Assembly: GCA_963747005.1 (NCBI GenBank)
Contig: CAVVDT010000003.1
Location: 336,901 to 368,900 of the forward strand
DNA from: an uncultured Alphaproteobacteria bacterium
Lineage (GTDB): Bacteria > Pseudomonadota > Alphaproteobacteria > Rhizobiales > Aestuariivirgaceae
Direction: 5' to 3'
DNA: 32,000 nt
A program made the position numbers and the translations under genes. The notes under the pieces are model-generated. The model was not told where the DNA came from. It saw only the letters and a list, made by a program, of their open reading frames with translations, and made no database searches. Shown piece by piece: positions 3,597 to 29,187 of this stretch (positions are counted from its first letter, which is position 1; every line of letters starts with the position of its first letter).

Positions 3597-3673
3597 TCAA
3601 AATTTGAGCCAGCTGTTCCCTCTTGAATCTTTTTTTGATAAGAACAAATAGAGAACAATCAGGGAGGAACGTC

Positions 3674-4618
3674 ATGTCCGAACAACCATATTCGCCTGCA
3701 CATCCGTGGGCCCTGGGCGCATCGCAAGCATCTCCGACAACCCCTGGCCGGAAATCCGGGCGCGCCGCCAAGCGCTTGTTGCAGCATCTGGCGGCTTCGT
3801 CCGGTTGGCTGGAACCTGTGGAGGGATCCGGCGCGGAGCCGGTCTGCTTTCGCTTCGTCGCCCTGGAGGGAGATCGGGACAAGAGCCACCCCAGTCTCGA
3901 CCGACGAACGGTGGAAGCCTGGCGGTCGCGAGGTTGGGTTGCCGCCACATCTTCAGGGATGTTCAAGCTGACGGCGTCCGGCTATGCAGCCGCCGCATCC
4001 GCACAGATCGCCGCTGTCGAGGATCCCGTCTCGCCTTTTCGGCGCCAGCACGGCTCGATCGGTCCCGAAATGCGCATCGTTGACGGCACAAGCCGACAGG
4101 TGACGGCGGATGCAGCGGAATCGCCCCTTGGGTGGCTGGCGCGCCGTCGCGACCGGCAAGGGCGTCCACTCATCGAGGAAAGTGAATTTGCCGCCGGCGA
4201 ACGGCTGCGTGCCGATTTCACCATCGCGGGCCTGTCGCAGCGCGTAACAGCCAGTTGGGAACAGTCGATTGCGTCAGGTTCGAGCGGTCGGAGCGGCGGG
4301 CCCGGCGACAACCTGGTGATGGGTGAGCGCGCCATGGATGCCCGTCGGCGGGTCAACCGGGCATTGGCCGCGGTTGGACCCGGCCTCGCCGGCATCCTGC
4401 TTGAGGTCTGCTGCCTGACCAGCGGTCTGGAGGCCGCCGAACGCCGCTTGGGGCTGCCGCAGCGGGCCGGCAAGGTGGTGTTGCAGATCGCTCTTTCGCG
4501 CCTGGCCGAGCATTATGGTCTCGCTCGCCAGGCGCCGGGCGAAACGGGGCCGGTCCGCATACGCAGTTGGGGGTCGCAGTCCTACAGGCCAACCCTCTTC
4601 GGCTCGGACCGGGAATAG
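3674..4618 (+). CDS. DUF6456-like domain protein (hypothetical)
   Basis: ATG at 3674 is preceded by GGGAGG. The segment ESPLGWLARRRDRQGRPLIEESEFAAGERLRADF ... MDARRRVNRALAAVGPGLAGILLEVCC fits my memory of DUF6456-containing proteins. The assignment is from recall only. Confidence 0.55.
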   Translation: MSEQPYSPAHPWALGASQASPTTPGRKSGRAAKRLLQHLAASSGWLEPVEGSGAEPVCFRFVALEGDRDKSHPSLDRRTVEAWRSRGWVAATSSGMFKLTASGYAAAASAQIAAVEDPVSPFRRQHGSIGPEMRIVDGTSRQVTADAAESPLGWLARRRDRQGRPLIEESEFAAGERLRADFTIAGLSQRVTASWEQSIASGSSGRSGGPGDNLVMGERAMDARRRVNRALAAVGPGLAGILLEVCCLTSGLEAAERRLGLPQRAGKVVLQIALSRLAEHYGLARQAPGETGPVRIRSWGSQSYRPTLFGSDRE

Positions 4619-25590: not shown

Positions 25591-26663
25591 AACGACCCCG
25601 CTTCTGAACCTGCCCTTCATCATGGCGGCGCAGGCGCAAAAGCACGTCACGCCACAACGACGCCCTGCTCGGGCTCGATGCGCTGGTGCAGCTTTCGGTG
25701 CTGAGCCGCACCGTGGCCGATCCGCCCGGCTCCCCGCAGGAAGGCGACCGCTATATCGTCGCCGCACCGGCTACGGGCGACTGGACCGGGATGGAAGCTG
25801 CCGTCGCGGCCTTTCAGGATGGCATCTGGCGCTTTTATTCGCCGATGCCGGGCTGGCGTGTGTGGATCAGCGATGAGGCACGCTTTCTCGTGCATGATGC
25901 CACGCAATGGCGCGGGGTTATCGCCGATGCCGATCTGCAGGACGTCGCCGAACTGGGGATCAACGCCACGGCGGACGCCACCAACAAGCTGGCGGTGAAG
26001 TCGCCCGGCGTGCTGTTCGACAACATCGGCAACGACAGCCAGGTCAAGGTCAACAAGGCGGCCGCCGGCGACACCGCTTCGCATCTCTTTCAGACCGGCT
26101 ATTCCGGCCGCGCCGAGTTCGGCCTGACCGGCGACGACGATTTCCACGCCAAGGTCTCGCCCGACGGCGCCGCCTGGAACGATGGCTTGCTCATCGACAA
26201 GTCCAGTGGCCGCGTCACCTTCCCCAGCGGGATCGGTGAACAGGGCACGTGGACCCCGACCGTCACGTTCTCGACACCTGGGGATTTCTCGCCGACCTAT
26301 AGCGCTCAGCAGGCCGATTACATCGGGCTCGGGGATTGGGCTTATGTGAGCTTCTATGTCAAATTCGACACCAACGCCTACACGACCGCGGGCGGCTACC
26401 TTCGTCTCGACGGCCTGCCCTTCGCGAGCCGCGTCGAAGGCACCTTACAGTTCTTCCCTTGCGGCAACGCGATTACCACAAAGGTGGTCTTTCTGACCGC
26501 CTACAAGCAGGTCATGTGGGTGACCCGCACCGGCTTTACCTGGTTGACCTTGATGTCTGTGAACAGTGGCGGCGGCACGTCGTCTCTGGGCGTCCCGACC
26601 CAGTTCCCGGCCTCGACCGCAGGCTTCGAGCTGTGGGGATCATTCTGGTACCGGAGGTCTTAG
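25583..26663 (+). pseudogene. DUF2793 domain tail-fibre-like protein interrupted by a 1-nt frameshift near codon 23
   Basis: The ATG at 25583 overlaps the g15 stop by 8 nt (ATGTCTGA). Frame 2 reads MSETTPLLNLPFIMAAQAQKHVT and then turns into Arg/Pro-rich nonsense. Frame 0 continues from 25653 as HNDALLGLDALVQLSVLSRTVADPPGSPQEGDRYIV..., the expected DUF2793 continuation (QAQKHVTHNEAL.. motif). One extra base lies within ACGCCAC (25649-25655). Confidence 0.75.
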
Positions 26664-27142: not shown

Positions 27143-27317
27143 CCCGCATCGGACGGCCTGGCGGTCTTGTTCTCCCGGTAGCGGCCAGGACCGCCGCTTC
27201 CCGCCGGCCAGGGCGGCATCCCCGGCGGCGATATCGCCCGCCAGTACAACCAGGTGATCGCCACGGTACTCGGCCTGCCGACCAGTCGATCGTAGTCCTG
27301 GCAGGAAAGAGCAGCCA

Positions 27318-27533
27318 ATGGATGAAAGCCTGCATCGCGACATGGGCGAACTGCAAGCCCGTGTGGCGGCCGTCGAGAGCGGCCTGCGCGAACTCAAGAC
27401 CGATGTGCGCGAGGTTCGCGACACCCTCGCCACCTTCCGCGGTGGCTGGCGGGCACTTGCGTTGATCGTCGCGGCGTCGGCGTCGCTCGGTGCCGTCGTG
27501 AGCAAGCTGGCGCCGCTGTTTCTCGGGCGCTGA
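27318..27533 (+). CDS. Small coiled-coil protein with C-terminal TM anchor (XhlA / DUF1515-like lysis-associated architecture)
   Basis: A 71-aa protein with an N-terminal coiled coil (GELQARVAAVESGLRELKTDVREVRDTL) and then a single TM segment (WRALALIVAASASLGAVVSKLAPLF). It is the first gene of the cassette that ends in endolysin and holin. Confidence 0.55.
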   Translation: MDESLHRDMGELQARVAAVESGLRELKTDVREVRDTLATFRGGWRALALIVAASASLGAVVSKLAPLFLGR

Positions 27534-27586
27534 CCGCGTCCTGCCCGCTCGCCAGCCAAAGCCAAATCAACGGAGAGGTTCCTGCC

Positions 27587-27991
27587 ATGCGCGCCATGCC
27601 GGGACTCATGGTGCTGCTTTTGGCGGCATCGCTTGCCATCGATGCGGCGGCTTCGTCGGCCATGCCCCGAACCGGCCCGGTTCTGCCGTCCGGTCCGGTT
27701 GTTGCCTGCCCGCACCTCGCTCGGTTGCTCGACATGGTGAGCCACAATTCCCACCGGCTCACGGCGACCCGGATAAGCAGCGGCAAGATTGCCAAGCTGT
27801 TCGACAATCTACCCGTCGACCTGCCATCGCGTCTTGCCCGTGCCGATACGGCCCTCATCATCCGCGCCGCCAGCGGCAAGGGGCAGGCGATCATCGTGCT
27901 GTTCTTCAACGGTTGCGCGCTCGCTGCCTTGCGCCTGCCCGCCACCGCGGTGGTGCTTGCCATCAGAATAGTCCTTGGACAGGAGATCTGA
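27587..27991 (+). CDS. Hypothetical exported/membrane protein inside the lysis cassette
   Basis: The ATG lies 9 nt after GGAGAGG. It has an N-terminal signal-like segment (MRAMPGLMVLLLAASLAIDAAASSA) and a C-terminal hydrophobic region (AIIVLFFNGCALAALRLPATAVVLAIRIVLG). No family was recognised. Confidence 0.5.
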   Translation: MRAMPGLMVLLLAASLAIDAAASSAMPRTGPVLPSGPVVACPHLARLLDMVSHNSHRLTATRISSGKIAKLFDNLPVDLPSRLARADTALIIRAASGKGQAIIVLFFNGCALAALRLPATAVVLAIRIVLGQEI

Positions 27992-27995
27992 ACCC

Positions 27996-28697
27996 ATGGA
28001 ATTGTGTGAAGATGGCCTTGATCTCATCAAGGCGCAGGAAGGCTTCAGGGCGAGAGCCTATCGGGATGCGACCGGCGTGTGGACCATCGGCTATGGTCAC
28101 ACTTCCATGGCCGGGCCGCCGCATGTGACACCAAGGATGGAAATCTCCGCCCGGCAAGGCGAGGACATCTTCCACCGCGACGTAACGCGCTTTGCCGAGG
28201 GGGTTCGCAAGTCCCTCGAGCGCGACCTTACCGACCGGCAGTTCACCGCCCTGGTGAGCTTTGCCTACAATGTCGGGCTTGCCAATTTCCGCGGGTCTTC
28301 AGTCCTCCGTGCTGTCAATGACGGCGACTTCGAGGCCGTGCCGCGCCGTCTGTCACTATGGGTGAAGGCGGGCGGACGGACCCTGCCTGGCCTCATCAAG
28401 CGTCGGGCGGCCGAAGCCGCCCTGTTCGCGGGTGAAACCGAAGCTTCTGTCGACGGCGGTGCAAGGCACCTGCCCGAGTCGCCCCGCGGCAAGCCCACGC
28501 ACCGCTCGACGACGACGCTCGCCGCCATCGTTTCGGCATTGGCGGCGGCGGCCTCCACCCTCGCTTCAGGGGTGCGCGACCTCGCCGGTGCCCTGCCGGC
28601 GGTGCGCCCATCGATGATCGCTGCGATCATCGTGGCGGGGGCGGCGGCCTGGATCATCCGCGAACGCTGGCTGAAATCGCGCGACGAGGGCGTTTGA
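27996..28697 (+). CDS. GH24 phage-type lysozyme (endolysin) with C-terminal hydrophobic/TM tail
   Basis: MELCEDGLDLIKAQEGFRARAYRDATGVWTIGYGHT carries the E/D/T catalytic triad spacing of T4/lambda-type lysozymes, and FTALVSFAYNVG and LPGLIKRRAAEAALF also fit. The C-terminal 80 aa contains two hydrophobic stretches (TLAAIVSALAAAASTLASGV and MIAAIIVAGAAAWII). Confidence 0.88.
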   Translation: MELCEDGLDLIKAQEGFRARAYRDATGVWTIGYGHTSMAGPPHVTPRMEISARQGEDIFHRDVTRFAEGVRKSLERDLTDRQFTALVSFAYNVGLANFRGSSVLRAVNDGDFEAVPRRLSLWVKAGGRTLPGLIKRRAAEAALFAGETEASVDGGARHLPESPRGKPTHRSTTTLAAIVSALAAAASTLASGVRDLAGALPAVRPSMIAAIIVAGAAAWIIRERWLKSRDEGV

Positions 28698-28698
28698 G

Positions 28699-29187
28699 AT
28701 GCTGCCCATCATCGGCATTCTCGGGCCCCTCTTCAGTTTTGTGCGTGGACCCGTCTTCAGCATCATCGACAAGCTGGTTGTCGATGCAAATCTGAAAGAG
28801 CGCCTGAAGGCGGAACTCGAGCAGCACGTCCTCGACAACCAGTCCGAACTGGCCAAGGTCCAGCGCGACGTCGTGCTCGCCGAGATCGGTTCCGACTCCT
28901 GGATGACCAGCCACTGGCGCCCGTGTCTCATGTTCATCATCATGGGCTTCCTTGTTCTCTACGGCCTGTTCCTGCCGCTCGCCGACCTGATGGCCGGCCG
29001 GCCTGTCGCCTTCTCCCCGCGCTGGACCGACATTCCGGACGGCATGTGGAACCTCCTGAGCCTCGGCGTTGGCGGCTATGTGGGCGGCCGCTCCCTGGAA
29101 AAGCTCGTGTCCACATGGGTCGGAAGGGCAGGCGATCAGGCCGCGCCGCCTACCGGCAAGCGCGGGAATTGGAAGGGGAGCAGGTAA
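28699..29187 (+). CDS. Holin, GTA_holin_3TM (PF11351-like)
   Basis: The ATG lies 2 nt after the lysozyme stop. It has three hydrophobic segments and the AEIGSDSWMTSHWRPCLMFIIMGFLVLYGL motif, which I associate with the holin of 3TMs for gene-transfer release. The endolysin-then-holin order matches the R. capsulatus lysis locus. Confidence 0.75.
   Translation: MLPIIGILGPLFSFVRGPVFSIIDKLVVDANLKERLKAELEQHVLDNQSELAKVQRDVVLAEIGSDSWMTSHWRPCLMFIIMGFLVLYGLFLPLADLMAGRPVAFSPRWTDIPDGMWNLLSLGVGGYVGGRSLEKLVSTWVGRAGDQAAPPTGKRGNWKGSR

Follow-up and report, generated by a model that had tools for sequence, protein, structure and literature searches.

We propose a model for the lysis module of a gene transfer agent (GTA) in which a small tail-anchored membrane protein would help the holin and a predicted periplasmic protein would modulate lysis, and we hold this model as a whole with moderate confidence. 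The module lies in a 32,000-nucleotide (nt) stretch of DNA from an uncultured alphaproteobacterium (contig CAVVDT010000003.1 of assembly GCA_963747005.1), the whole of which was analysed and is called the window here. The window contains a GTA cluster of the Rhodobacter capsulatus type (RcGTA-type), and the 3′ end of this cluster is a four-gene lysis cassette that encodes, in order, proteins of 71 and 134 amino acids (aa) from the open reading frames (ORFs) ORF71 and ORF134, a muramidase of glycoside hydrolase family 24 (GH24), hereafter the lysin, and a holin of the PF11351 family. The functions given to ORF71 and ORF134 are those that we infer from their sequences and predicted structures.

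In the proposed model the four genes would act as a terminal, co-transcribed lysis module of the cluster. A C-terminal hairpin of weak hydrophobicity, resembling a signal-anchor-release segment, would tether the GH24 muramidase to the inner membrane. The cytoplasmic coiled coil of ORF71 would drive oligomerisation at the same membrane, where its membrane helix, rich in small residues, may pack against the holin, the membrane hairpin of the lysin, or both. Like XhlA and gp24.1 of PBSX and SPP1 and like the DUF1515 proteins, ORF71 would serve as a second, holin-assisting membrane component, helping to trigger the lethal membrane lesion by which the tethered lysin would be freed or activated. ORF134 would be exported by the Sec pathway, lose its signal peptide and fold into a small basic alpha/beta protein of the periplasm, probably disulfide-bonded; more tentatively, its role may be to modulate lysis negatively, for instance through binding to muramidase that is prematurely exposed. 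Judged by their predicted features neither ORF71 nor ORF134 is a spanin, and there is no spanin candidate in the cassette or elsewhere in the window.

The four-gene cassette

The four ORFs lie exactly where the initial annotation had placed them, and its reading of a lysis cassette of four genes is borne out, the cassette closing the RcGTA-type cluster at the 3′ end. The genes are tightly packed, with the ORF134 stop 4 nt before the lysin ATG and the lysin stop 1 nt before the holin ATG, and their order is common to more than 12 orthologous metagenome loci. A scan for sigma-70 promoters and terminators gave no convincing candidate of either kind, whether inside the cassette or after it. Because long chance ORFs arise in such GC-rich DNA, both small ORFs were checked as genes. 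Their third-codon-position GC (0.79 for ORF71 and 0.78 for ORF134) is comparable to that of flanking genes, GGAG-type ribosome-binding sites lie 5′ of both, and each is called as a gene in more than 12 orthologous metagenome loci; ORF71 and ORF134 are real genes and not artefacts of high GC. Pfam, PHROGs, NCBIfam and PADLOC returned nothing meaningful for either of them.

The lysin is read from the ATG at 27996 within a mechanical ORF of 27975-28697, which gives a protein of 233 aa, the length found in gene calls of relatives and in an identical 233-aa protein present in the protein collection. It matches PF00959 at E 1.5e-41, is labelled endolysin by PHROGs and retains the intact GH24 motif E15-x8-D24-x5-T30 when this is read off the sequence, all in keeping with the GH24 endolysin named by the initial annotation. 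The catalytic domain occupies aa 1-150 (27996-28445), and its nearest relatives of known structure are phage lysozymes, with 6et6 as the best match (7.7e-30). Two weakly hydrophobic membrane segments follow at aa 172-193 (28509-28574) and aa 207-221 (28614-28658), of which the first is nearly invariant and consists to 73% of Gly, Ala, Ser and Thr, a composition that we take to resemble that of signal-anchor-release segments. The same layout with C-terminal transmembrane (TM) segments is found in 21 of 79 related GH24 lysins from viral contigs. The NCBIfam model of BgtA, the lysozyme of the Bartonella GTA, BaGTA (NF058676, an equivalog model), matches residues 4-208 of the 233 at 179.7 bits, below its cut-off of 315 bits, and by this measure the lysin is BgtA-like but not an equivalog.

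Two side observations concern the lysin. Its layout, in which two C-terminal membrane segments come after a GH24 domain, is presumably that of the Caulobacter polarity factor SpmX as well. The NCBIfam SpmX model matches the catalytic domain at 79.9 bits, far below the model cut-off, and SpmX may have been recruited from an ancestor that resembled tethered GTA or phage lysins of this kind. In addition, four contigs from different metagenome samples (L007, 8675-9376, and L008, L009 and L010; comparison loci are numbered with the prefix L) share one nonsense change in the lysin gene, TGG to TGA, at codon 122 inside the catalytic domain, while ORF71, ORF134 and the holin are intact in each; the allele either is a natural lysin null or relies on read-through.

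Endolysins with C-terminal membrane domains form a known, little-studied class in which the membrane segment is needed for lysis (PMC8879335, PMC7143992, PMC8943055). LysAP of phage AP1, M4Lys of BSPM4 and the Enc34 enzyme resemble the present lysin in having an N-terminal catalytic domain and a C-terminal membrane segment, whereas the present lysin has two such segments, a predicted hairpin, and the catalytic families of M4Lys and Enc34 differ from GH24.

The holin matches PF11351 at E 4.6e-14 (53.4 bits against a gathering cut-off of 24.8) and phrog_3427 (holin) at 3e-23, so that its description as a GTA-type holin stands. Its hydrophobic segments lie at aa 2-23, 76-98 and 116-130; hydropathy is clear for the first two, and the third is Gly-rich and weak. 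A scan of genome contigs with the holin alignment, run with very specific patterns, returned 3 loci. Outside the close relatives of the cassette, locus L016 (5537-7933) has a holin 51% identical to the present one, and there two multi-TM proteins of 123 and 96 aa replace ORF71 and ORF134, the 123-aa protein matching phrog_2359 (holin) at 1.9e-4, with a SleB-type cell-wall hydrolase (PF07486) 3′ of the holin. On either side of the lysin-holin core there seems to be a hot spot at which lysis accessories are swapped.

ORF71 and the XhlA/DUF1515 architecture

ORF71 begins with a coiled coil at aa 5-40 (27330-27437), in which the hydrophobic residues 5, 9, 12, 16, 19, 23, 26, 30, 33, 37 and 40 make a perfect 3-4 heptad pattern over five clean heptads, and it ends in an Ala/Ser-rich hydrophobic segment at aa 46-69 (27453-27524); AlphaFold2 models residues 2-69 as one continuous helix. 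An RGGW motif is invariant among relatives and the membrane helix nearly so. Pairwise ratios of nonsynonymous to synonymous substitution rates (dN/dS) range from 0.10 to 0.37, equal to the range for the lysin and the holin, and purifying selection on ORF71 is as strong as on these two genes. Because the protein has no signal sequence and carries 16 charged residues in its 44-residue N-terminal part, we infer that it is tail-anchored with the coiled coil in the cytoplasm.

This architecture, namely a protein of about 70-120 aa with an N-terminal coiled coil and a single C-terminal membrane helix, is that of the XhlA type. SPP1 gp24.1 and PBSX XhlA each have a single C-terminal membrane helix, and their genes lie beside those of an endolysin and a canonical holin (PMC6316719, PMC5589764); the SPP1 XhlA-like protein and holin are harmless singly and lethal when combined (PMC6316719). 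ORF71 likewise has an endolysin and a distinct holin beside it in its lysis cassette, and the SPP1 order 24.1-25-26 (XhlA-like, lysin, holin) is the order of ORF71, lysin and holin here. The N-terminal coiled coil, a Trp and a basic residue before the C-terminal helix, the richness of that helix in small residues and a short tail are all common to ORF71 and XhlA/gp24.1. The sizes are also similar, at 71 aa against 83-89 aa for XhlA/gp24.1, which come from Bacillus PBSX and SPP1, whereas the host of ORF71 is a Gram-negative alphaproteobacterium. DUF1515 proteins, a family without known function, share with ORF71 the coiled coil and the C-terminal membrane helix but are about 130 aa long.

The comparison with both families is sharpened by a recurring phage cassette, found at about 3400-4900 of L041, L045, L047, L048, L068 and L083, that combines a TM-anchored GH24 lysin with a tail-anchored coiled-coil protein. 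The slot 3′ of the lysin, usually with a lipobox ORF between, is filled by different proteins in these related loci. In L041 and L048 the slot equivalent to that of ORF71 holds a DUF1515 protein (PF07439, E 9.6e-36; 129 aa in L041), placed 3′ of the lysin and a spanin-like pair. In L047 it holds a true XhlA (PF10779, 1e-10, 42.1 bits against a gathering score of 34.7), and in L045 and L083 an unclassified tail-anchored coiled-coil ORF. A spanin-like lipobox ORF, or a pair, lies between the lysin and the coiled-coil protein in L041, L045, L048, L068 and L083; no lipobox ORF was detected in the L047 cassette. Because the cassette recurs in viral contigs together with lipobox spanin-like ORFs, the XhlA class is not confined to phages of Gram-positive bacteria. 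The XhlA/DUF1515-like architecture that the initial annotation had ascribed to ORF71 thereby gains a counterpart, in true XhlA and DUF1515 proteins that occupy the equivalent slot.

Relatives of ORF71 itself also occur in such cassettes. A profile hidden Markov model (HMM) of the family matches two of them. In L088 the order is a soluble 143-aa GH24 lysin without a membrane segment, a PF11351 holin (4.4e-18), an ORF71-like protein (E 3.4e-14) and the small terminase. In L068 it is a TM-anchored lysin, a 90-aa protein with an N-terminal TM segment, an overlapping 64-aa lipoprotein that matches phrog_1275 (Rz-like spanin) at 2.9e-4, an ORF71-like protein (E 5.6e-7) and again the small terminase. 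As the L068 homologue coexists with a spanin-like pair, ORF71 would be a separate component and not a substitute for a spanin, and on these profile matches the ORF71-like family is a recurrent component of lysis cassettes. A word-indexed protein search with ORF71 found 12 close relatives only (76-90% identical), and targeted scans added distant ones in L019 and L033 (55-59% identical). In every GTA locus that carries it, ORF71 is directly 5′ of the lysin, or of ORF134 where that gene is present; this includes L019 and L033, where the lysin is again membrane-anchored. Searches by tblastn with ORF71 and its relative from L020 against 50,697 phage genomes gave nothing useful, and a metagenome scan with ORF71 gave close relatives only. 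A match of the L020 relative in L036 was dropped, as the ORF was not convincing.

Several observations weigh against this reading of ORF71. It has no Pfam match at E<=1, and is neither XhlA (PF10779) nor DUF1515 (PF07439) by that test; its relatives in L019 and L020 likewise have no match to PF10779, a model that the positive control, SPP1 gp24.1, matches at E 3.9e-14. When the ORF71 family was compared by hhalign with Bacillus XhlA the probability was 7.9%, or 50% out of register, and with a DUF1515 protein it was 14%, in register and with RWK aligned to GGWR before the membrane helix; neither comparison reached significance. The weak ORF71 relative in L020, a 123-kb viral contig, sits after a capsid gene and not in a recognisable lysis cassette. 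The N-in topology is putative, and the flanking charges are balanced. Weak matches do run between the groups: phrog_1193 (hemolysin) is matched at 5.9e-6 by the L020 relative and at 0.0059 by that of L088, against 2e-9 for gp24.1, and DUF1515 matches the ORF71 HMM weakly, at E of about 4e-4 to 7e-4. We regard ORF71 as a putative inner-membrane holin partner that belongs to the XhlA/DUF1515 architectural class by its layout, homology to either family being undemonstrated.

ORF134 and alternative roles for the small genes

ORF134 starts with a Sec-type signal peptide at about aa 1-22 (27587-27652), followed by a variable Pro/Ala linker. The n-, h- and c-region features and an AxA-type site are kept in 8/8 orthologues, which supports the N-terminal signal-like segment of the initial annotation, and this segment drifts neutrally (dN/dS about 1). 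The conserved globular core runs from C41 to I134 (27707-27988) and contains the invariant Cys41 and Cys110, in the motifs CPHL and GC; the mature protein is basic throughout the family, with an isoelectric point of 9.8-11.2. AlphaFold2 models core residues 40-130 with a predicted local distance difference test score (pLDDT) above 90, in the order helix, strand, helix, three strands, helix. A hydrophobic C-terminus had also been noted, and the hydropathy there is indeed high in every orthologue (19-residue Kyte-Doolittle average 1.6-2.1). The stretch is nevertheless not read as a membrane anchor, because it is modelled, again with pLDDT >90, as a beta-hairpin with an invariant NG/RG/KG turn and a helix within the globular domain. 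No lipobox is present in ORF134 or its 8 orthologues, in agreement with the initial annotation. Pairwise dN/dS is 0.30-0.72 for the whole gene and 0.24-0.50 for the mature core, and ORF134 evolves faster than its neighbours.

The C-terminal G-Q/E-E-I is invariant because the last codons, GGACAGGAGATCTGA, overlap the ribosome-binding site of the lysin, and the position of this site inside the end of ORF134 implies translational coupling. A near-identical GAGGAGA..TGA element 5′ of the lysin persists in loci without ORF134. A proline-rich ORF embedded in ORF134 (27789-27971) was considered as an Rz1-like gene and rejected: it starts with TTG, lacks both a signal peptide and a lipobox, and looks like the alternative-frame ORFs that are typical of high-GC DNA.

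Periplasmic lysozyme inhibitors (Ivy, PliC/MliC, PliG, PliI and T4 Spackle) are similarly small, Sec-exported and cysteine-containing, and the adjacency and coupling of ORF134 to a muramidase gene would fit such a role. ORF134 has no sequence match in the PDB at E<=10, and Foldseek searches of PDB and BFVD gave none below E 0.01 (best 0.014); the Foldseek matches listed have query-normalised TM-scores <=0.40, with no lysozyme inhibitor among them. Across Pfam, PHROGs, NCBIfam, PDB and Foldseek it shows no sequence or fold similarity to known lysozyme inhibitors.

The distribution of ORF134 is narrow. Queried by word index with the sequence alone and then with a profile, a set of 5.8 billion proteins yielded only its own family of eight members, and scanning 1.84 billion representatives in full with an HMM added no relatives, the match P0022 being a spurious repeat protein. 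The gene is missing from L011, L012, L015, L022 and L024 through a clean insertion/deletion of about 400 nt, with ORF71, lysin and holin kept. A neighbour-joining tree of the lysins, which took in four of these five loci (L012 was not included), places L011, L015, L022 and L024 in one clade nested among ORF134-positive lineages, so that a single gain and a later single loss make the simplest history. L016, L019 and L033, all of which keep the lysin, lack ORF134 too, and ORF71 is kept in every ORF134-negative locus except L016. ORF134 is thus dispensable for whatever maintains purifying selection on ORF71, lysin and holin. In this sample ORF134 is found solely in loci that carry the holin. Nonetheless the general co-occurrence of the two small genes with PF11351 holins that the initial annotation had looked to does not hold: ORF134 is confined to one narrow lineage, L019 has an ORF71-like gene and no PF11351 holin, and L016 has the holin and neither small gene. 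ORF134 is a dispensable, predicted periplasmic accessory and possibly a lysis inhibitor, and a role in lysis timing or inhibition is a live option.

A number of points weigh against such a role. No observation ties ORF134 physically to the lysin or the holin, it resembles no known lysozyme inhibitor or antiholin in sequence or fold, and its presence tracks no obvious change in the lysin. ORF134 could instead be unrelated cargo, a moron inserted between ORF71 and the lysin that serves, for example, in phage or GTA exclusion or in envelope modification and has no part in lysis. We consider this unlikely, although it keeps some weight: the gene came and went as a clean insertion and deletion, its family is an orphan of about eight members with dN/dS above that of its neighbours, and it is absent from all 80 phage lysin loci examined. 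Set against this are the purifying selection on its core, the integration of its stop and last codons with the lysin ribosome-binding site, and the lack of a promoter of its own. Its production would therefore be limited to cells that are already committed to lysis, a pattern that fits a role in lysis better than one in exclusion.

For ORF71 the alternative to a holin helper is that it is itself the holin, or a releasin of the tethered lysin, binding the lysin hairpin and controlling its exit from the membrane, with the PF11351 protein as an auxiliary. L019 (6001-7400) would fit, as it keeps an ORF71-like protein and a TM-anchored lysin and the interval from this lysin to the downstream response-regulator gene contains no PF11351 holin, and both the ORF71 helix and lysin segment 1 are Ala/Ser-rich and nearly invariant. 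Endolysins with C-terminal membrane domains moreover depend on that domain (PMC8879335, PMC7143992). However, the ORF71 homologue of L088 accompanies a soluble lysin together with a PF11351 holin, L016 has a TM-anchored lysin and a holin and no ORF71, and the holin of L019 might lie elsewhere, or its module may be decaying. We think this arrangement improbable and retain ORF71 as a holin-assisting component. About equally doubtful is the joint, more far-reaching proposal that ORF134 is the first of a new family of disulfide-bonded periplasmic proteins that inhibit phage-type GH24 muramidases, acting as a brake on or immunity factor against the GTA endolysin, and that the ORF71-like, DUF1515 and XhlA proteins make up a single class of tail-anchored holin partners, ancient and widespread, in phages and GTAs of Gram-negative and Gram-positive bacteria.

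A further possibility for ORF134 is an antiholin of the T4 RI type, whose periplasmic domain, possibly still anchored at its N-terminus, would bind a loop of the PF11351 holin and delay triggering. Its N-terminal hydrophobic segment with a periplasmic globular domain, its restriction in this sample to holin-carrying loci, and its dispensability and fast evolution, as in accessory timing regulators, would all be compatible with this. Yet there is no similarity of sequence or fold to RI or any antiholin, the predicted periplasmic loops of the holin are short, the gene is translationally coupled to the lysin and not to the holin, and the AxA-type site argues for cleavage of the signal peptide; such an antiholin is quite improbable, and the periplasmic modulator of the proposed model remains our preferred form for ORF134.

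The initial annotation had noted that the two small genes stand where a spanin might be expected. It is highly improbable that, once the wall is cut, the two jointly span the periplasm and break the outer membrane, in spite of a cassette otherwise without a spanin, a scan for the lipobox pattern that found none in any ORF of the window on either strand, a coiled coil in ORF71 and a predicted periplasmic location of ORF134, for the idea fails on lipobox, topology, length and conservation alike. ORF134 has no lipobox or outer-membrane anchor and is globular, neither proline-rich nor disordered; with its C-terminal stretch modelled as hairpin and helix it does not look like a unimolecular spanin of the T1 gp11 type, and having been lost from a clade in which its three companion genes persist, and being absent from L016 and L019, it is not conserved with the lysin and holin as a partner in a two-component spanin. 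ORF71 has no signal sequence, its 44 soluble residues could span only about 6-7 nm, and its polarity, with the coiled coil N-terminal and the membrane segment C-terminal, is opposite to that of an i-spanin. Its L068 homologue, moreover, stands alongside a spanin-like pair of N-terminal-TM protein and lipoprotein. The Rz/Rz1 spanins are similar in their place in a lysis cassette and in having one coiled-coil and one periplasmic partner; they differ in that ORF71 is too short and of the wrong polarity, that ORF134 is globular and dispensable, and that both genes are 5′ of the lysin, whereas the spanins of related phage cassettes are 3′ of it.

The locus and its meaning for GTA lysis

The features of the cassette are collected in the table. 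Upstream of it, family libraries identify the large terminase, portal, S78 protease, major capsid, tail tube and DUF2460 genes of the cluster, as well as the Gp84/BR0599 hub, an NlpC/P60 protein and a DUF2793 fibre; a 1299-aa protein is encoded at the g15 position, and GTA_TIM (PF13547) is recorded for its orthologues. Rfam and tRNA scans of the window were empty.

Features of the lysis cassette and its 5′ border, with positions in the window
Feature	Position	Strand	Evidence
Remnant of ~686-aa gene (last 26 codons)	27209-27286	+	tblastn, blastn synteny breaks
ORF71, tail-anchored membrane protein (predicted)	27318-27533	+	ORF, codon statistics, dN/dS, hydropathy, AlphaFold2
Ribosome-binding site GGAGAGG, 8 nt 5′ of the ORF134 ATG	27572-27578	+	read off sequence; equivalent GGAGG in orthologues
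ORF134, secreted periplasmic accessory protein (predicted)	27587-27991	+	signal features, invariant Cys, AlphaFold2
Last codons of ORF134, GGACAGGAGATCTGA (G-Q-E-I-stop), doubling as lysin ribosome-binding site	27977-27991	+	sequence comparison
GH24 muramidase, BgtA-like	27996-28697	+	Pfam, PHROGs, NCBIfam, PDB matches
PF11351 (GTA_holin_3TM) holin, 162 aa	28699-29187	+	Pfam, PHROGs, hydropathy

The 5′ border of the cassette is altered in this genome. A deletion 5′ of ORF71 (27143-27317) has left out a 119-aa gene and a gene of about 686 aa in comparison with every orthologous locus; the two would sit between a 158-aa gene and ORF71, and the larger is directly 5′ of ORF71 in all relatives. The remnant listed in the table is 73% identical by tblastn to residues 661-686 of the 686-aa protein of L003. 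The ~686-aa protein is phrog_26223-like and probably a fibre or host-recognition protein, and given the loss of both genes this GTA may be altered or impaired in adsorption. The spacer 5′ of the 119-aa gene was aligned in a search for promoters and contained no conserved motif. The DUF2793 fibre-like protein is 325 aa long here against about 357 aa in relatives, and its C-terminal part (26427-26663) has no nucleotide match to orthologues, which suggests that the 3′ end of its gene encodes a swapped or diverged receptor-binding end. About 7 kb 5′ of the GTA cluster a DUF6456-domain protein of 331 aa is encoded (3623-4618, + strand, E 1.6e-49), adjoined by a MucR/Ros regulator (2373-2840, + strand); homologues of GafA, a direct GTA activator, are annotated as DUF6456 (PMC9638019).

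There is only a partial understanding of how GTAs leave Gram-negative cells. RcGTA is known to rely on holin-endolysin lysis, and BaGTA to have the lysozyme BgtA (PMC13236601, PMC5496983, bioRxiv 10.1101/2024.11.20.624540). The R. capsulatus mechanism is a classical one, whereas the Caulobacter GTA is released by an unrelated immune-like system (PMC13236601), and a transposon insertion in bgtA lowers transduction 36-fold (PMC5496983). The RcGTA pair rcc00555/rcc00556 has the PF11351 holin family in common with the present locus, and both are GTA-associated; unlike that pair and unlike the BgtA system, the present lysis genes are joined to the structural cluster at its 3′ end. Searches of the GTA lysis literature turned up no account of genes resembling ORF71 or ORF134. 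On this comparison the locus would represent a third layout of GTA lysis, with lysis genes fused to the structural cluster, a lysin predicted to be membrane-tethered, an additional tail-anchored protein and no spanin.

ORF71 and ORF134 leave the outer-membrane-breaking step of this GTA unexplained. ORF134 is a tractable orphan with a confidently predicted new fold, whose narrow distribution and dispensability limit its general importance. Finally, the occurrence of ORF71-like, DUF1515 and XhlA proteins at one position in many phage cassettes points to a broadly used, uncharacterised component of Gram-negative lysis.

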